A stretch of DNA of 64,000 nt, from positions 2,048,001 to 2,112,000 of the forward strand of contig CBDFJR010000002.1 in assembly GCA_965248535.1 (NCBI GenBank). Reading direction: 5' to 3'. Below are positions 18,470 through 25,810 of the stretch, piece after piece; position 1 is the first letter of the stretch; each line of letters begins with the position of its first letter. The translations under genes were made by a program, and so were the position numbers. Below the pieces are notes generated by a model. The model was not told where the DNA came from and made no database searches. It worked only from the letters and a program-made list of their open reading frames with translations. This stretch comes from Phormidesmis sp. (GTDB lineage Bacteria > Cyanobacteriota > Cyanobacteriia > Leptolyngbyales > Leptolyngbyaceae).

Positions 18470-18588
18470 AGATTTTCTCCTTGATACATTTTTAGTTTTT
18501 AATGCTCGATCGCTCCTAGCGCTTTCAGCGTAGCTTTTTCTGCTTCAGTTAAGCCTTTGACTCCCGTGATGTTCATGCCTTCATAGGG
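18467..18588 (-). repeat. 122-bp direct repeat copy B (actual NACHT-WD40 3' end plus RBS/ATG)
   Basis: Encodes PYEGMNITGVKGLTEAEKATLKALGAIEH* and the following intergenic sequence. Confidence 0.95.
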
Positions 18589-21500
18589 TTTGTTACTCAG
18601 CGTTTTCAAACACTCACCTGATTCAATATCCCAAAATTTAATTGTTTCATCATAGCCACCACTCACCAGTGTTCTATTATCTGGAACAAAAGTCACTGAG
18701 CGTACTCGATTGGTATGACCATTAAAAGTTTTAAGGCATTCCCCAGTGTAAGCATCCCAGAGCTTTACTGTGTGATCAAGACTACCAGTAGCTAAGAATT
18801 TACTATCACAACTAAAGGATACTGAATCTATTTCACTGGTGTGTCCTTGCAAAGTTTTGAGATATTTTCCCGTACGGAGATTCCATGTTTTGACTGTTTG
18901 GTCTCGACTACCACTAGCTAAAAACTCTCCATTGGGTGCAATAGCGACAGAGCGAATACGATCAGTATGTCCTGTTAAAACTTCACGACATTCTCCTAAG
19001 TTTACGTCCCATAACTTTACTGTTTTGTCAGTGCTGACACTAGCAATAGTTGCACCATCCGGGCTAATGGCAACTGAATTGATCCAGCCATCATGCTGTC
19101 CTTGAAGAGTTTTCAAACATTCACCACTAAGAACATCCCATAACTTTATAGTGCCGTCATCATTACAACTCACCAGAGTCGCACCGTCAGGACTGAATAC
19201 AACTCCTGCCATGTGACTATTGTGCCCATGTAGGGTTTTAAGGCAGTCTCCAGTGTGGATGTCCCAAAGTTTGACTGTATCATCACCACTGCCACTAGCA
19301 AGAGTTTTACCATCAAGACTAATCGCAACTGAACTTATCCACTTGTGATGTCCCTCTAAGGTTCTAAAACAATCTCCAGTGGATGTATTCCATAGCTTGA
19401 CTGTCTTATCATTACTGCCAACAGCAAGAAATCTTCCATCGGGACTAACGACAACTGTATCGATCCAACGACTATTGCCTTGGAATGTCCTCAAACAATT
19501 GCCAGTCTGCGTATTCCAGAGCTTCACTGTCTGATCATCACTGATGCTAACAAAGATTGTGTTGTCTGAATTAAAAGCAATTTTCCTGACTCTAGCGGAA
19601 TGCCCTTCTATAGTTTTGATACATTCGCCAGTACTAATATCCCAAAACTTTATCGTTTGATCTCTACTACCACTTGCAAGAGTTTTATTGTCTTGACTGA
19701 AGGCAATTGATCGTACGCTACGAGTATGACCTTCTAAAATCTTAATGCACTCATGGGTAAAAGGATTCCAGAGCTTTACTGTGTTATCTGAACTACCGCT
19801 TGCAAGAATCTTGCCATCATAACTGAATACTAATGAGAGAACGGACTTAGTTTGTCCTTCTAAGGTTTTCAAACATTGTTCTGAATCTATATCCCAGAAC
19901 TTGATCGTTTTGTCAAAACTACCACTTGCTAAGGTTTTCTCATCAGGAGAGACTGCGATTGCCCATATTATATCTGTATGCCCTTGAAAAGTCTTCAAAC
20001 AGCCTCCCGTCTGAACATCCCAGAGTTTTATGGTTTTATCATCACTGCTACTGGCAAGAATTGTACCGTCTGAATTAAAAGCTATTGATCTCACTGCACC
20101 AGCATGACCCGCCATAACTCTTAGGCATTTCCCGGTATCACTATTCCATAGTTTTACTATTCCTTCATGCCCACCACTAGCAAGAATCAAGCCGTCAGGA
20201 GTAAATGCCACTGAGCTAATCCAATCGCTGTGTCCTCTGAACTTCAGAATTTGCTCACCATTGTCAACTTGCCAAAAGCGAAGTTCACCATCTGCTCCAC
20301 CCGTTACAAATAACTGAGCTTTAGGGCTGAATGCAACGGATAAAAGAAGACCAAAAGCTTCGAGAAAAATAGAATTGGTTAAGTCTGCTTCCGAAAAGTT
20401 AACGTGTCGTAAGCTAGCATTTGTGAAATTAGCACCTTGAAGAATGCTATGGCTAAGATCTCTACCCTCAAGAGCAGTTTTATCCATCGCAACTATCAAT
20501 GTTGCTGTATTGCCTCCGACATAATCTACTTCTACCTTAGTTTTCCCTCGTACTGTATCCAAAATATTTTGGAGGGAAGAATAGTGCGCTACTGAAACAT
20601 GCAACATTGGCAAAATCAGATCTAGTACTGCTTTCGGTAATGATATTTGCCCAAAGCCCGATCGCAACACTTCCAAACTCTCATTCACAAACTCTTTCAA
20701 GGGTGCAATCTGTTTTTCGCGGTGACCAAAATACTCTGACCACTGATAGTCACGCGGTCTCAGGGTGGTATCGACGCAGGGTTGCATCTGTGCTAACTCC
20801 AAAAAATCAGGCGCTAAGGCACCTAATTCAGCGGCAAATTTGTAGGCGACAAAGAACTCTAAGAGCGATCGATGCGCTGGCATATAATCCCCATCAGCAT
20901 TGCGGATCAACATCGTCTGACCCATCATGTCGTAGTGCCAGTGATCCAAGTCTTTCTCTTCCTGAACCACTGAACCAAACAAGCGACGGATACGATCAGG
21001 AAACTCACGATAGTTGAGACTCATGCGATCCGTAGACAACATTTCCCACGACAACTCACACAAGAAATAGAGCTTTTCTGCCAGGGAGGTAAACGTGCGT
21101 TCTGCCTTGATGTCTCGCTCCATTTTGCGTCGTACTGCGTAGAGATAAACACGCGACATATCTACAGGTTTACCCGCTTCAATATCCGGTAGCGCCTCCA
21201 AAATCAATTCTGTCATCACCGGACGACGCGCCAAATCAAGCAATTGTGCGTTGTTCATCACCTGTTGCACCACCTCTGAAGATGCCTGCAACGCCAAGAC
21301 TTGCCGAATTTGCTCATCGTCAAACTTCTCCAGTTCCAGCACCTCAAACTGAGGCGTATCTTCGTTCAGGTTGATGGTTGAGGCTTTAAGTTCCGCATTC
21401 AGTAGCGCCCGTCCTTCTTTGACTTCTGGGAAATGCTCCGTCCGACAGGTCAAAATCACCTTTGCCCCTGGCACGACGATTTTTGCCAATTCCCAAAAGT

Positions 21501-22935
21501 TATTGATCATCTCCTGGCGATCGACCCGCGCTGCCATCTCGTCAAAGCCATCAAAAATCAGCAGCAGCTTGCCCATGCGGTTGAGTTGCTCAAACGCTGA
21601 ATAACCGGGAATTGGAATCTCGTGTTTGCGGAAGAAGAACTCGGAAAACAACGACTCCACGCTCACTGCTTTAGCATAATCGCGCAAGGGAATGACCAGC
21701 GGCAGACGCGGACGATCGACTCCCCGCTTTTGGGCATCCCGATAGCGTTGCAAGGCAACCCAGGCATAGTGCAGCGCAAACCAGGTTTTCCCAGTGCCAA
21801 ACTCACCCAAGACAGAAATATGCTCCTTCGCCGGATCGTCCAGCCATTGGTCAATGTAGCCATCGATCCAGCCATCACGATCGTCGTAACGACTCACCGC
21901 AATGCGCTGCTGTGTCACCGGGTCTAATTCTTCTTTGGTGCAAGCCAGCGGCACGTACTTCTGCTCAATCTGCCGCTGTTGAATTTCTGCCTCTAGCCAA
22001 CTCAGGTATCCACTAAAGTCAGCATCTTGATCCAGCAATTCATCAAAGGTGTAGCAGCCCAAATGAGCGTTTTCGGGTTTCTCAACTTCAGTACGCGCCG
22101 CTCGACTAATCCGTCGGGTCGTGACCAGCCAACCTTCATCGGTGCGCTGCTGTTCCACCGATTGACGCAGCATTCCCACATCGCCAATCTCAGCCGCGCC
22201 TTCCATGCCCCGCACCAGAATGCGATCGTACCGTCCCCGCCGCACCGGAATATTAATCACCCACTCAAAATAATCGTTTTGCCAAATTTCATGGGTCTCA
22301 AAGCGATAGCCCAAGGTTTCAAACCAACCTTTCATCTGTTGCGCCAGCGCAAAGGCTCTACACTGCCGATCCTGAGATTCAGCCGATGGTAAAGCTAAAC
22401 TTTGGGCGGCGAGCCGAGCCATCTCCGTTCGCATTCCCTCTAACGTCGGCAACCGAGTCAATCGTTCTTGAACCGTGCCGATTTGCTGATGGAGCGACTC
22501 TAATTTTTGATTCGTCAACACTTCAGCCGGAGTGCGAGTGCGTTTAGCAACTTCAATAAAAATGGCGGCAAACTGATAAAACTCTCGTCTGGCATCAATG
22601 CCTAGCTCCTGAATTTGTTCGCCTAGGGCATGGCTTGACAGAAACTTCTCGCCTTCTTGCAGCAACAGCGCCGAGTTGTTGCGATCGAGTGCCTTACGAA
22701 AGATCGCTTGGATTGCCAACTGCCGGAAAATCTCCAGCACAGGCTTTGGCTTACCGATGCCATACTCAACCAGGGTGTACTGGTAAACGGCTGTGAAATC
22801 CGCTGGGGGATGATCGGGATCGAGGTTCAGTTGCTTTAACAGCTTAATCACAAGCTCATTGCGCTGAAGCTTGTTTTGCACAACGGGACTCGCAAACCCG
22901 ACAATGATATCGATTAGCTTAACCAACTCAATCAC
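18499..22935 (-). CDS. NLR-like STAND protein: N-terminal helical domain, restriction-endonuclease-like domain, NACHT NTPase, pentapeptide repeats, about 14 WD40 repeats
   Basis: GEFGTGKT Walker A, LLLIFDGFDEM Walker B, ILTCRTEHF; LSHSILQGANFTNASLRHVNFSEADLT pentapeptides; repeated GH...V.SVAFS.DG..LASGS.D.T.KLWD. Confidence 0.92.
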   Translation of the reverse strand: MIELVKLIDIIVGFASPVVQNKLQRNELVIKLLKQLNLDPDHPPADFTAVYQYTLVEYGIGKPKPVLEIFRQLAIQAIFRKALDRNNSALLLQEGEKFLSSHALGEQIQELGIDARREFYQFAAIFIEVAKRTRTPAEVLTNQKLESLHQQIGTVQERLTRLPTLEGMRTEMARLAAQSLALPSAESQDRQCRAFALAQQMKGWFETLGYRFETHEIWQNDYFEWVINIPVRRGRYDRILVRGMEGAAEIGDVGMLRQSVEQQRTDEGWLVTTRRISRAARTEVEKPENAHLGCYTFDELLDQDADFSGYLSWLEAEIQQRQIEQKYVPLACTKEELDPVTQQRIAVSRYDDRDGWIDGYIDQWLDDPAKEHISVLGEFGTGKTWFALHYAWVALQRYRDAQKRGVDRPRLPLVIPLRDYAKAVSVESLFSEFFFRKHEIPIPGYSAFEQLNRMGKLLLIFDGFDEMAARVDRQEMINNFWELAKIVVPGAKVILTCRTEHFPEVKEGRALLNAELKASTINLNEDTPQFEVLELEKFDDEQIRQVLALQASSEVVQQVMNNAQLLDLARRPVMTELILEALPDIEAGKPVDMSRVYLYAVRRKMERDIKAERTFTSLAEKLYFLCELSWEMLSTDRMSLNYREFPDRIRRLFGSVVQEEKDLDHWHYDMMGQTMLIRNADGDYMPAHRSLLEFFVAYKFAAELGALAPDFLELAQMQPCVDTTLRPRDYQWSEYFGHREKQIAPLKEFVNESLEVLRSGFGQISLPKAVLDLILPMLHVSVAHYSSLQNILDTVRGKTKVEVDYVGGNTATLIVAMDKTALEGRDLSHSILQGANFTNASLRHVNFSEADLTNSIFLEAFGLLLSVAFSPKAQLFVTGGADGELRFWQVDNGEQILKFRGHSDWISSVAFTPDGLILASGGHEGIVKLWNSDTGKCLRVMAGHAGAVRSIAFNSDGTILASSSDDKTIKLWDVQTGGCLKTFQGHTDIIWAIAVSPDEKTLASGSFDKTIKFWDIDSEQCLKTLEGQTKSVLSLVFSYDGKILASGSSDNTVKLWNPFTHECIKILEGHTRSVRSIAFSQDNKTLASGSRDQTIKFWDISTGECIKTIEGHSARVRKIAFNSDNTIFVSISDDQTVKLWNTQTGNCLRTFQGNSRWIDTVVVSPDGRFLAVGSNDKTVKLWNTSTGDCFRTLEGHHKWISSVAISLDGKTLASGSGDDTVKLWDIHTGDCLKTLHGHNSHMAGVVFSPDGATLVSCNDDGTIKLWDVLSGECLKTLQGQHDGWINSVAISPDGATIASVSTDKTVKLWDVNLGECREVLTGHTDRIRSVAIAPNGEFLASGSRDQTVKTWNLRTGKYLKTLQGHTSEIDSVSFSCDSKFLATGSLDHTVKLWDAYTGECLKTFNGHTNRVRSVTFVPDNRTLVSGGYDETIKFWDIESGECLKTLSNKPYEGMNITGVKGLTEAEKATLKALGAIEH

Positions 22936-23147: not shown

Positions 23148-23229
23148 TGCGGATGAAAGGACTTGAACCTTCACTTCTTGCGAAACCAGAACCTAAATCT
23201 GGCGCGTCTACCAATTCCGCCACATCCGC
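23148..23229 (-). tRNA. trnL: tRNA-Leu (TAG)
   Basis: GCGGATG/CATCCGC acceptor stem, CCAGA-TTTAGGT-TCTGG anticodon arm, long variable arm, GGTTCAAGTCC T-arm. Confidence 0.97.
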
Positions 23230-23318: not shown

Positions 23319-23651
23319 TCATGAGAGACTGCCCACACTAATAGGAATCAAATTGCCTTCGGGGGTAAACCCTAGCATCATTGCGTCGCCCGATCGGATC
23401 ACCGTTCCCGTCAGGGCGCAGCGTTCTTCTTGGTGAGCGGTGGCGGCGATCGTAGCTCGAAAATCAGACGCAGCGATGGTTGCCGTATAGTCACCCGATT
23501 TTTGCTGGACATAGTTCCACAGGATGTCTCGAATCAATGCCTGATAGCCCTGATTGCCAGAAAGTGATTTTAGCTGTTCCTTTAACTCTCGTTCCAGACG
23601 AATGCTGGTGACTTCCATATCGGTGGTGGTGGTGCGAGTCAAGGTATGCAT
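23319..23651 (-). CDS. Ribbon-helix-helix (CopG-like) DNA-binding protein with a small C-terminal domain
   Basis: VTSIRLERELKEQLKSL...YQALIRDILWNYV pattern (beta strand with alternating residues plus two helices); GGAGG RBS. Confidence 0.8.
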   Translation of the reverse strand: MHTLTRTTTTDMEVTSIRLERELKEQLKSLSGNQGYQALIRDILWNYVQQKSGDYTATIAASDFRATIAATAHQEERCALTGTVIRSGDAMMLGFTPEGNLIPISVGSLS

Positions 23652-23670
23652 GGTCTTCCTCCAAAGTAGC

Positions 23671-23699
23671 TGGACACTTTTATATTACAAGTGTAGTAT
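23671..23699 (+). promoter_or_regulatory. Sigma70-type promoter overlapped by an imperfect palindrome (candidate RHH operator)
   Basis: TGGACA-17 nt-TAGTAT; ATATTACAAGTGTAGTAT matches its reverse complement at 14 of 18 positions. Confidence 0.6.
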
Positions 23700-23770
23700 G
23701 TTAACTGTAGACTGCAAGTTAAGTCCTTCAATATCTTCTGAAATGAACTCTCTACGGCTCTTTTTAACAT

Positions 23771-23941
23771 CGTTTTGGCTAGGGCATCGCGTCGGCGATG
23801 GTTCTTGCGAGGCGGGCAGAGTCGTAGTTTTGCCGTTTATGGGCGAGTTTCCAGAGATTAAAAGTTCCCCCACAATTCAGTCCCCATCACTCCGAAGCGG
23901 GAGGGGCAGGCGCGTTCCTGCCCCGGTCTAGCCAGAAAACG
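23771..23941 (+). ncRNA. Candidate structured RNA (leader/riboswitch-like or sRNA), family not recognised
   Basis: Nested stems by eye: 23771-82/23928-41, 23788-801/23884-99, 23815-20/23829-34, 23840-50/23862-72 and perfect 8-bp 23903-10/23917-24; lies between a promoter and a terminator; no credible ORF. Confidence 0.6.
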
Positions 23942-23958
23942 CTCAAGTAGTTTTTCTA

Positions 23959-23994
23959 GCCTCCGCTTCACACTCACCAGAAGCGGAGGTTTTT
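23959..23994 (+). terminator. Intrinsic terminator 72 nt upstream of the Alr0857-like gene
   Basis: GCCTCCGCTTC-N10-GAAGCGGAGGT then TTTT. Confidence 0.85.
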
Positions 23995-24066
23995 GATTGT
24001 TAACCCCTTTGAAACTCATGTAAACCCTTGAAACCCGTAAACCCTGGAACATAGGAGCTACCAGGA

Positions 24067-24477
24067 ATGTTGAAGTTTACCTACACCGAGACGGGGATCA
24101 CCCTTGAGCGGGTCAGCCAATCGCTCGAAGAGTTGGTGATGCTGCGGATTGTGTTAGCGATGCGAGTTGGGCAGCGGCTGATCGTCGAGCCGGGCAGGGC
24201 GACCTTTTTGCTGTCGGCAAATTTGCAGGCTTGGAGGCTGCTGGATGCGGTGGTGCGGCGATCGCTCAATGACGCGATCGAGCTTTGCCAGTGCGATGCA
24301 GACTTCATTGAGGTCAGCCTGCGCGGAAGCTGGATCGCGCAAACCACTAGCAGCGAGGAGGGCATCTTTTTAGCCGAACTGGGCGACTCGCTGCCCGGAA
24401 CGCTGTGGGAGCGGGCCGAGTTTATTATGTTTAAGCTCTGGCAGGAGTCATCGGCGTGCCCGTCTTCGCTGCGATAA
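24067..24477 (+). CDS. Conserved cyanobacterial protein, Alr0857-like, function unknown
   Basis: MLKFTYTE...LER...LEE....R..LA.R.G....EP..A.FLL...EV.L.GSWI....EEGIF...RAEF...KLWQES pattern recalled from this family; 3' end overlaps menE by 47 bp. Confidence 0.75.
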   Translation: MLKFTYTETGITLERVSQSLEELVMLRIVLAMRVGQRLIVEPGRATFLLSANLQAWRLLDAVVRRSLNDAIELCQCDADFIEVSLRGSWIAQTTSSEEGIFLAELGDSLPGTLWERAEFIMFKLWQESSACPSSLR

Positions 24478-25810
24478 TTTGTCTTAGCTGAGGTTGATTG
24501 ATCTTCCCTTGGGGATTGCGAGGCAAGGTTTCGAGCGAGATCCAATATTTGGGACGCTTGAATTTGCTGAGGGTTTCTTCAAGGGATTTGATTAATTGGC
24601 GGTCAGAAATCGCTGAGGTTTGCGGCACATAGACGGCGGTGACGGCTTGACCCCAGATACGATCGCTGACCCCTAACACACAGACATCTTTAACCAGTTT
24701 GGTGGCCCTTATGGCCGCCTCGACTTCTGCCGGAAAGACGTTTTCGCCGCCTGTAATAATTTTGTTGCTGTCGCGCCCGACAATCTGCAAATAACCGTAG
24801 GGGTCAAAAAATCCCAAATCGTCGGGTTGATAAATGGGCTGCTGCAAAAAATGGGGATAGTAACCCAACATAAGTGAGTCGGCTTGAATGGTGATTTTTC
24901 CGGTTTCACCTGTTGCCAAGGGGTCGCCCTGTTCGTTTTGAATCGTGATTTGAGCGTGAGGTAACGCTTGACCAGCGCCGACTTTGGCGGTTAAGAAATC
25001 CTTTGGTTGCAACGTGACAATTTGGGAGGCGGTTTCGGTCATGCCATAGGTGGGCGCGATCGGGAGTCTATAAAATCTCGCGGCATCCAACAAATCTGAC
25101 CAGGCAGGTGCACCGCCTAACAAGATCGTCTCAAATTGAGATAGCCAAGCAATGGCTGGAGGGTGATCTAAAAGCTTTTGAAGTTGGGTGGGAACGAGGG
25201 AGAGAAAAAAACTTTGAGGGTTGATAGACTGAGCTTCTCCGGCTTCTAGAGCTTTCCACGGGAGAATGACTAACTGCCCGTCTGAGAGAAACGATCGCAT
25301 AAATTGCATCAAACCACTGACGTGATAGAGCGGCAGCACGCAAAACGAATCGACGCGATCGACTGCAAAATAGCGCTGAAATCCTTTTACGGATGCGGTT
25401 AACGTCTCCCAAGTGTGCATCGCAAAGCGAATTTTGCCCGACGTGCCGCCTGTGGGAATCATGATCAGAGGTGACGAATGAAGAGGGAAGGATGATTTTG
25501 GGGGAATGTCTCGGCAAAAAGGCAGCGAGTCTCCCCAGATTAAATCGGGCTTTACTAAGTCAAACACCTGCTGCCACTCGGCATCAACCCAATCGGGATT
25601 GCCCAAAAAAATCGAACAACGGGCAGAACACGCGGCAATGAATCCGGCGAGAAACGCGATCGGGTTGCGTTCGGCTAACAAAATGGTGGGCGGCGTTGCA
25701 TATCGTTGGAGCGCTTGATATCGCTGCTCTGTTAAGTCAGTCAGGGCTTGACTGCTGTGACCGACCAGCCAGTTTTCTCGGTGCCGATGCTGAATTAAAG
25801 ACTTTGCCAC
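24431..25810 (-). CDS. menE: o-succinylbenzoate-CoA ligase
   Basis: PTGGTSGKIR AMP-binding loop, LPLYHVSG, SLVPTQL, YGMTET, IITGGENVFP.EVE; men context. Confidence 0.9.
   Translation of the reverse strand: MAKSLIQHRHRENWLVGHSSQALTDLTEQRYQALQRYATPPTILLAERNPIAFLAGFIAACSARCSIFLGNPDWVDAEWQQVFDLVKPDLIWGDSLPFCRDIPPKSSFPLHSSPLIMIPTGGTSGKIRFAMHTWETLTASVKGFQRYFAVDRVDSFCVLPLYHVSGLMQFMRSFLSDGQLVILPWKALEAGEAQSINPQSFFLSLVPTQLQKLLDHPPAIAWLSQFETILLGGAPAWSDLLDAARFYRLPIAPTYGMTETASQIVTLQPKDFLTAKVGAGQALPHAQITIQNEQGDPLATGETGKITIQADSLMLGYYPHFLQQPIYQPDDLGFFDPYGYLQIVGRDSNKIITGGENVFPAEVEAAIRATKLVKDVCVLGVSDRIWGQAVTAVYVPQTSAISDRQLIKSLEETLSKFKRPKYWISLETLPRNPQGKINQPQLRQIIAAKTGTPMTPARA

Follow-up and report, generated by a model that had tools for sequence, protein, structure and literature searches.

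What kind of RNA control, if any, stands between a divergently transcribed repressor gene and the small conserved gene that follows it in the cyanobacterium Phormidesmis sp.? The DNA concerned is a stretch of 64,000 nucleotides (nt) of contig CBDFJR010000002.1 (assembly GCA_965248535.1, positions 2,048,001 to 2,112,000 of the forward strand), here termed the window, and all coordinates refer to it. The original prediction placed an unrecognised riboswitch-like RNA at 23700-24477, with a promoter, a folded element of ~170 nt, a terminator/antiterminator switch and an alr0857-like gene, and saw it as one part of a module that also includes a ribbon-helix-helix (RHH) repressor. In our analysis the switch survives, the ligand-binding part finds no support, and a reading frame takes its place. 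On balance, the interval 23671-24477 is probably a leader-controlled transcription unit in the translational-stress regulon of the repressor TrcR, and we put the chance that its RNA works as a ribosome-dependent leader attenuator within that regulon at slightly better than even.

The reading is built on a conserved RNA switch at the 3' end of the leader and on the open reading frame (ORF) that runs into it, the parts of which are as follows.

23743-23931, plus strand: putative leader ORF, 62 codons and a TAG stop, positional counterpart of asr0855 (comparative evidence)
23894-23904, plus strand: motif 1, GAAGCGGGAGG, proposed 5' strand of the antiterminator, inside the ORF (alignment, pairing)
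23903-23924, plus strand: hairpin P1, made of GGGGCAGG, a 6-nt loop and CCTGCCCC (inverted repeat; covariation)
23931-23960, plus strand: putative hairpin P2, local, after the stop codon (inverted repeat; pairing in relatives)
23960-23994, plus strand: intrinsic terminator with a 10-bp stem, a 10-nt loop and U5 (inverted repeat; covariation)

The strong terminator lies where it had been predicted: its arms, CCTCCGCTTC (23960-23969) and GAAGCGGAGG (23980-23989), are 100% complementary and form a perfect 10-bp hairpin, followed by TTTTT (23990-23994). Our terminator scan overlooked this hairpin because the scan is limited to loops of 3-8 nt and the loop here has 10. Motif 1 nearly copies the 3' arm, also as proposed. 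Across lineages, the conserved 3' ~115 nt consist of (GA)AGCGGGAGG, P1, the stop codon, a variable P2, the terminator and the U-tract; P1 is usually GGUACAG...CUGUACC, the stop codon falls in the P1 loop or up to ~10 nt past P1, and the terminator reads CCCCCGCUUC...GAAGCGGGGG ahead of the U-tract. Judged by eye, the AGCGGGAGG core is near-invariant in the matching rows.

A covariance model of this region (R1), built from 16 sequences, matches 77 of 100 sources. In the R1 alignment, which is fitted to the model and therefore favours this pairing score somewhat, 95.7% of cells pair in P1 and the terminator together, with double changes in 8 of the 17 pairs; the covariation score of these two helices is 0.150, against 0.094 in shuffles (0/500 reach it), and slid controls pair in 35-63% of cells. 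Taken singly, P1 pairs in 94.8% of cells, with changes on both sides in four of its seven pairs, and the terminator in 96.3%, with double changes in 4/10. The competing helix between motif 1 and the terminator 5' arm (the antiterminator core, eight pairs) is deeply conserved as well: 94.1% of its cells pair and a few double changes occur in five of the eight pairs, the slid control, measured on the whole 12-pair structure, giving 45-54%. In the genus of the window, one terminator pair has changed from C-G to U-A, which is compensated, and motif 1 meets the U through a wobble or a one-base bulge. Hairpin P2, pairable in 86.4% of cells (9 relatives), has little covariation and a lineage-variable sequence; folds from other lineages also show a hairpin at its place.

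In 68 of 74 distinct elements, the minimum-energy structure is the terminator fold, and the antiterminator fold, when forced as a three-way junction with P1 and P2, is less stable by 7.4 kcal/mol on average and by 4.0 in the window. Because the terminator fold is the more stable of the two, the default state should be OFF, which fits the OFF-type attenuator of the original prediction. The two predicted helices share the terminator 5' arm and are mutually exclusive, the arrangement expected of a leader-peptide attenuator. A possible pairing of the 5' untranslated region and start region with the segment after P1, as a closing stem in generalised form, was unconvincing across lineages (mean z -0.52; 3/55 below -2, all of them Microcoleus-like, L057, L090 and L091).

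The structure proposed upstream of this switch has fared less well. For 23700-24070 as a whole, the fold scores z = -1.56 and is equalled by 7 of 100 shuffles; the opposite strand behaves alike, and the ~170-nt multi-stem fold is not supported as more than chance. Of the stem said to close it, the repeat stands (CGTTTTGGCTAG at 23771-23782 with CTAGCCAGAAAACG at 23928-23941) and the covariation support does not: 90.7% of cells are pairable (9 relatives), yet 47 of 500 shuffles equal this value, a double change is seen in one pair, and a synonymous ORF change breaks one pair in 6/9. Hairpin P2, likewise putative, shares its 3' strand with this stem and scores much as it does; the second CTAGCC, put forward as a competitor for it, is present at 23956-23961. 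The ~150 nt before the switch vary freely in sequence and length between lineages and coincide with the frame that would be translated, which leaves the claimed ligand-binding aptamer without support. Almost all invariant positions are in the antiterminator, P1 and terminator helices, and the loops and junctions vary in sequence and length; the conserved unpaired core of a generic small-molecule riboswitch is lacking, and a ligand riboswitch is unlikely. The failure to match known riboswitch families was borne out by Rfam 15, in which 23600-24120 has no match at the gathering threshold and, at E<=10, two minus-strand noise matches of 15.4 bits. No Rfam family was found for ten homologous loci, and the best match of a Nostoc-type leader at E<=10 is PyrR, with 19.6 bits against a threshold of 54.

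In an alignment of relatives (seven congeners and one neighbouring genus), the plus-strand frame from the ATG at 23743 to the TAG at 23931 is open in 9/9, and the insertions and deletions within it measure -6, -3, -3 and +42 nt; those just outside it measure 1 nt. More widely, among the 80 TrcR loci (those fetched with the TrcR alignment) and the window taken together, 62 carry AGCGGGAGG or a one-base variant. In the frame that reads the motif as AGC-GGG-AGG, the median open length upstream is 88 codons over the 62 loci, against 15 and 17 codons in the other frames, and this frame is the longest in 59. The exceptions are two loci (L097 and L102) in which a long ORF in another frame terminates five codons past the motif, and one distant motif match (L095) that is probably spurious. 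All of 12 further copies have the long frame; six of the 12 precede alr0857 paralogues in loci that, as far as fetched, lack a trcR homologue, and an operator-like site is kept in five of these six. The ORF begins ~40 nt past the operator with a conserved ATG or GTG and then AA, is ~60 to ~100 codons long, and has a middle that is unalignable between lineages. An ORF on the minus strand (23685-23873), whose wobble positions are shared with the plus frame, was rejected, as it is interrupted by stops in 5/9 relatives.

In Nostoc-type loci the frame is annotated as a hypothetical protein of 82-83 amino acids (aa) in 80 clusters (56-92% identity), which fits asr0855, with a product of 83 aa according to a table in PMC2823733. 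In Nostocales, the leader ORF is the annotated asr0855-type gene, which shares with the leader ORFs elsewhere a place flanked by the TrcR operator and the HNH/alr0857 genes, a C-terminal R-S-G-R-x-R motif and the start region. A link between this motif and the RGSGR heptapeptide of PatS/PatX was considered and set aside, since the peptide here reads R-S-G-R-x-R and its conservation is that of the nucleotides. The argument that 23743-23931 is a translated leader ORF, of the kind that an attenuator of this class contains, is thus a comparative one.

The leader peptide appears to be barely constrained though its frame stays open. Variable columns are distributed evenly over the three codon positions, as 52/45/56, 54/47/52 and 41/39/45 in three lineage groups, and the ratio of nonsynonymous to synonymous variation (pN/pS) in the ORF body is 0.35-3.3, compared with 0.69-0.86 in out-of-frame controls and 0.00-0.12 in trcR. 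In the genus of the window, pN/pS is 0.57 for the whole leader ORF (0.12 for alr0857 and 0.14 for trcR), 0.25 for codons 2-20 and about 0.8 for the remainder. Maintenance of the frame combined with a freely changing product is the pattern expected of a regulatory leader ORF. The codons AGC-GGG-AGG have almost no synonymous variation in the matching rows and stand in another frame in two loci, which indicates that the constraint on them acts on the RNA.

The regulon to which we assign the leader has been described in Anabaena. According to Wang et al. 2023 (PMC10272220), TrcR (all0854) is an RHH repressor whose own promoter holds the conserved 18-bp motif to which it binds, and asr0855 (a small hypothetical), alr0856 (HNH) and alr0857 lie divergent from trcR in Anabaena PCC 7120 and are upregulated 9.2-fold, 7.2-fold and 8.5-fold, respectively, in a trcR deletion mutant. 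The same text reports that translation elongation inhibitors derepress the regulon, that asr0855 and alr0857 are among the genes upregulated by chloramphenicol, that TrcR represses a tRNA operon, and that the TrcR protein level drops by a mechanism still to be found (PMC10272220). The window resembles the Anabaena locus in its divergent repressor, operator, small ORF and alr0857 gene and, unlike it, has no HNH gene (the counterpart of alr0856) between the leader and the alr0857 gene. The features around the switch are the following.

23319-23651, minus strand: trcR homologue, an RHH repressor of 110 aa (ORF list; divergent from the leader)
23682-23699, no strand assigned: TrcR operator on the -10 boxes of both divergent promoters (match to the published motif)
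23671-23699, plus strand: putative leader promoter, with -35 TGGACA, a 17-nt spacer and -10 TAGTAT (promoter scan; conservation)
23995-24066, plus strand: spacer before the alr0857-family gene, with the repeats GTAAACCCTTGAA / GTAAACCCTGGAA and then AGGAG (repeat listing, alignment)
24067-24477, plus strand: alr0857-family gene (ORF136), 136 aa, the proposed regulated gene (NF045647)

The operator, ATATTACAAGTGTAGTAT, agrees at 16 of 18 positions with the reverse complement of the published TrcR motif and contains the 8-mer consensus TGTAGTAT; TGTAGTA is found upstream of trcR in 80/80 loci. The RHH protein of the window is 66-77% identical to the products of divergent RHH genes that adjoin alr0857 homologues, and L44 and A72, the positions mutated in published TrcR mutants, are invariant columns in the RHH alignment. 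With a TrcR-type RHH repressor and the published operator over the -10 box, the locus is a predicted member of the TrcR regulon. A discussion passage in PMC10272220 describes TrcR as missing from branching filamentous forms. Records of Fischerella and Westiellopsis (L109, L110, L112, L120 and L121) hold TrcR-type loci with the full leader.

The promoter expected upstream of the element was located by the promoter scan, with TGGACA at 23671-23676, TAGTAT at 23694-23699 and 17 nt between them, and transcription would start near 23706; only 5 of the 54 columns of 23652-23705 are variable among eight congeners. An independent plus-strand promoter between the terminator and ORF136 (23995-24066), raised beforehand as an alternative source of expression, was not seen in a simple scan. 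ORF136 is Alr0857-like as had been stated, with 157 bits against the NF045647 profile (cut-off 75, E = 2.1e-46), and its homologues carry a precomputed PF28246 assignment. Neither Pfam nor PADLOC gave a result for the three proteins of the module. The AlphaFold2 (AF2) model of the alr0857-family protein is confident (predicted local distance difference test score, pLDDT, 88.5) and has a mixed beta-sheet and three helices, and comparison with solved structures gave nothing convincing (Foldseek against the PDB, best E 0.086; VIA-align wide, best Z 4.7).

In a sample of 151 genomes, evenly drawn from the class and at least 90% complete, R1 matches 61, spread over 42 of 84 genera, and no genome has more than 5 copies. 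At the 11 best loci in other genomes, the alr0857 gene is downstream in all 11, with an HNH gene between in seven and a divergent trcR upstream in nine, and by eye 11 weaker R1 matches in the family are also just upstream of alr0857 homologues. The divergent pair of RHH and alr0857 genes occurs in 16 of 22 loci of other genera. Of the three-part module first suggested, the divergent RHH repressor, the leader RNA and the alr0857-family gene therefore do recur across cyanobacteria, and it is the ligand aptamer that is left without support. By DNA search and by R1 alike, the genome of the organism itself has one copy, so a miniature inverted-repeat transposable element or other dispersed repeat bounded by an inverted repeat is ruled out. 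Where an HNH gene follows the leader, the terminator 3' arm was considered as its Shine-Dalgarno sequence and rejected, since the HNH start is apparently a GTG with its own AAGGAG or GAGGAGG, at least 20 nt past the terminator. Microcoleus-type loci (L052-L096 and similar) have runs of a 7-nt repeat (CTAAAAT-like) within the spacer, ~140-290 nt long, that separates the leader terminator from the HNH gene.

Published work has described the repressor and the operator and established that asr0855 exists; the leader switch is new with respect to Rfam and the literature searched. In the text of PMC10272220, supplements aside, asr0855 is treated as a hypothetical protein gene, and "attenuat" and "leader" have 0 occurrences; searches of the literature on alr0857, asr0855, TrcR and cyanobacterial leader peptides, antiterminators and ribosome stalling found no account of the leader.

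From these parts we propose the following course of events. The TrcR operator and the promoter would drive a ~290-nt transcript that carries the leader ORF. If motif 1 pairs with the terminator 5' arm, a three-way junction would form around P1 and P2; if the terminator hairpin (23960-23989) forms instead, transcription would stop at ~23994, before the alr0857-family gene. A ribosome translating the leader ORF would set the switch, in that motif 1 would be available or not, as the terminator 5' arm emerges, according to where the lead ribosome stands or how far it is delayed relative to RNA polymerase. A ribosome is suggested because the frame is kept without constraint on the peptide and its stop has a fixed place at P1, because motif 1 lies inside the ORF, and because the regulon responds to elongation inhibitors; the sensing step and the direction of regulation are both what we infer from these features. 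A more specific form, which we offer as a tentative possibility, is that the leader serves as a cis gauge of global translation speed, in which the long, free-sequence ORF would be a race track where the lead ribosome drops behind RNA polymerase under impaired elongation, and this lag would set whether motif 1 captures the terminator 5' arm. The terminated leader and its peptide might additionally act in trans.

A number of observations weigh against a ribosome-set switch, beginning with its geometry. Counted from the start of motif 1, the distance to the stop codon varies with the lineage from 15 to 66 nt; in Nostoc-type leaders it is 36 nt, and by our own footprint estimate a terminating ribosome would there miss the motif; by the same estimate it would cover motif 1 in some lineages and not in others, and the arrangement of stop and motif does not map in any simple way onto the trp model. 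The ribosome state that would favour read-through is not derivable from the sequence. Neither regulatory codons in a run nor an arrest motif of a known kind was recognised in the leader ORF; in motif 1, AGG and GGG do not vary as codons, yet they are also part of the RNA helix. An upstream anti-antiterminator is not apparent either, as the best duplexes with motif 1 are at shuffle level (mean z 0.08; 0/59 below -2). The window ORF is without a Shine-Dalgarno sequence and has no homologue among predicted proteins; beyond the genus its similarity is weak, and tblastn reaches only one genome (G023, E = 6e-5). The constraint on codons 2-20 makes a functional peptide possible. The U-tract that follows the terminator is not continuous in Microcoleus. 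Mutual dependence keeps the three strands of the switch nearly invariant, which leaves little covariation to be seen in the antiterminator.

Three other explanations of the locus were weighed. In the first, which we consider rather unlikely and which includes the riboswitch reading, the junction of motif 1, the terminator 5' arm, P1 and P2 would be stabilised by some other factor, be it a tRNA, a small ligand or a protein such as one encoded in the regulon, and the element would be an ON switch. An antiterminator junction that is less stable by 7.4 kcal/mol does need stabilising, and several features are in keeping with a bound factor: an A opposite a C is kept in the antiterminator helix (68/72 cells are unpaired there), where a G would pair better, the sequence of the P1 stem is largely conserved, and A-Y-A-R-G after P1 persists in Microcoleus though it does not form the stop codon of the long frame there. 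A translating ribosome would, however, unfold the putative pocket, and the open frame of 60-100 codons, present in 59/62 and 12/12 loci, would be left unexplained. Conserved unpaired nucleotides are moreover few, unlike in known small-molecule aptamers, and there is no Rfam family in the window or in 10 other loci.

Somewhat less likely again is an ordinary small-protein gene of the asr0855 family that has a promoter to itself and a constitutive terminator; expression of alr0857 would then depend on leaky read-through or on a promoter that went unseen, and the resemblance between motif 1 and the terminator arm would be non-regulatory. The evolution of the ORF body like out-of-frame DNA is difficult to reconcile with such a gene, even though 80 clusters (56-92% identity) contain the Nostoc-type ORF as an annotated protein and codons 2-20 have a pN/pS of 0.25 in the genus of the window. 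Peptide motifs at both the N- and the C-terminus recur, but the C-terminal one is kept at the nucleotide level and lies in another frame in L097 and L102. A second, upstream version of the 3' arm, retained in 42 genera, would not be expected of an ordinary terminator, and the element travels with alr0857 paralogues; on the other side, an insertion of 250 nt downstream of the terminator and ahead of the alr0857 gene is tolerated in two of seven congeners.

That the terminated ~290-nt leader is itself the product, in line with the stand-alone RNA offered as an alternative in the original prediction, and is a dual-function small RNA acting in trans under translational stress, perhaps with its peptide, is the least probable of the three: it has its own promoter, a strong terminator, an 89-nt contig (23889-23977) in two metatranscriptome libraries of relatives (contigs only, and weak as evidence) and a precedent in the attenuator-derived rnTrpL/peTrpL pair, as described in PMC7968998, whereas no target or seed region was identified, the alr0857 gene downstream in 11/11 loci argues for a role in cis, and such an RNA is in any case compatible with a ribosome-dependent attenuator. 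More generally, four RNA library runs yielded short contigs from relatives (90-99% alike) covering 23442-23664 and 23889-23977, and one contig runs from 23945 through the terminator into an insertion variant; as starts, ends and strand are invisible in such contigs and DNA carry-over is possible, they give no evidence of expression or read-through, and stretches that no contig covers are equally uninformative.

Comparison with characterised systems shows where a ribosome-dependent attenuator at this locus would be familiar and where it would not. The pbuE adenine ON riboswitch is a three-way junction in which the 3' strand of the closing helix is the terminator 5' arm and the terminator is the more stable structure. 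The leader resembles it in junction topology and in the more stable terminator, and differs in having no conserved junction core, no Rfam match and an element overlapped by the putative translated frame. With the trp, his and pheL leaders, and with antibiotic-responsive ones such as the tylosin-sensing yxjB leader (PMC6851288), it has in common a leader ORF, here translated by prediction, before an intrinsic terminator, and with leader-peptide attenuators in general an antiterminator that shares the terminator 5' arm and termination by default. Its ORF of 60-100 codons is longer than the roughly 14-30 codons of those leaders, the ORF contains the antiterminator 5' strand, which precedes the stop codon, and neither a regulatory-codon run nor a known arrest peptide or anti-antiterminator was found. 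It is, furthermore, cyanobacterial, and its regulon is one of translational stress in general, not of a single amino acid or drug. As in pyrBI, the outcome would depend on the distance between the lead ribosome and RNA polymerase. The same dependence is seen in the EF-P-dependent coupling of transcription and translation (PMC5021804). In pyrBI and the EF-P systems the ribosome blocks the terminator hairpin directly; here the stop is ~30-60 nt upstream of the terminator, and any effect of the ribosome must therefore go through motif 1 and P1.

Several further observations concern the flanks of the unit. In the spacer, the direct repeats GTAAACCCTTGAA / GTAAACCCTGGAA (24006-24066) are kept as far as the neighbouring genus, and a CCTGG...CCAGG pairing flanks the AGGAG ahead of the alr0857 start, which may be a second control point for the gene. 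The ~250-nt insertion mentioned above, found in two of seven congeners (G064 and G059; records L008 and L004) between 23997 and 24018, that is, between the terminator and the alr0857 gene, has G/C-rich inverted segments inside and is possibly a small mobile element. The 3' ends of the alr0857 gene and of a convergent 459-aa ORF on the minus strand (24431-25810) overlap by 47 nt (24431-24477); that ORF, together with the two ORFs behind it, presumably belongs to a menaquinone/phylloquinone-like pathway. On the other side, a tRNA-Leu gene (23148-23229, minus strand) lies directly downstream of the window trcR, and upstream of this tRNA gene is a 1478-aa ORF (18499-22935, minus strand) with a P-loop segment and, by eye, many WD40-like repeats. 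An Allocoleopsis record (L072, 41-427) has four tRNA genes within ~430 nt of the same type of locus. Given that TrcR represses a tRNA operon in Anabaena, the adjacency of tRNA genes to trcR may be beyond chance.

As a ribosome-dependent attenuator, the leader would bear on a question left by the known regulon: TrcR ties transcription to translational stress, the sensing step is open, and the leader, which sits at the trcR locus itself and at alr0857 paralogues, is a candidate ribosome-level sensor. Rfam has no entry for this cis-regulatory RNA family, which is widespread, with members in ~40% of the cyanobacterial genomes and half the genera sampled, and the "hypothetical proteins" of the asr0855 type would be re-read as mainly regulatory. 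If the leader does gauge translation speed, cyanobacteria would possess a direct, RNA-level sensor of translational stress, layered over TrcR.

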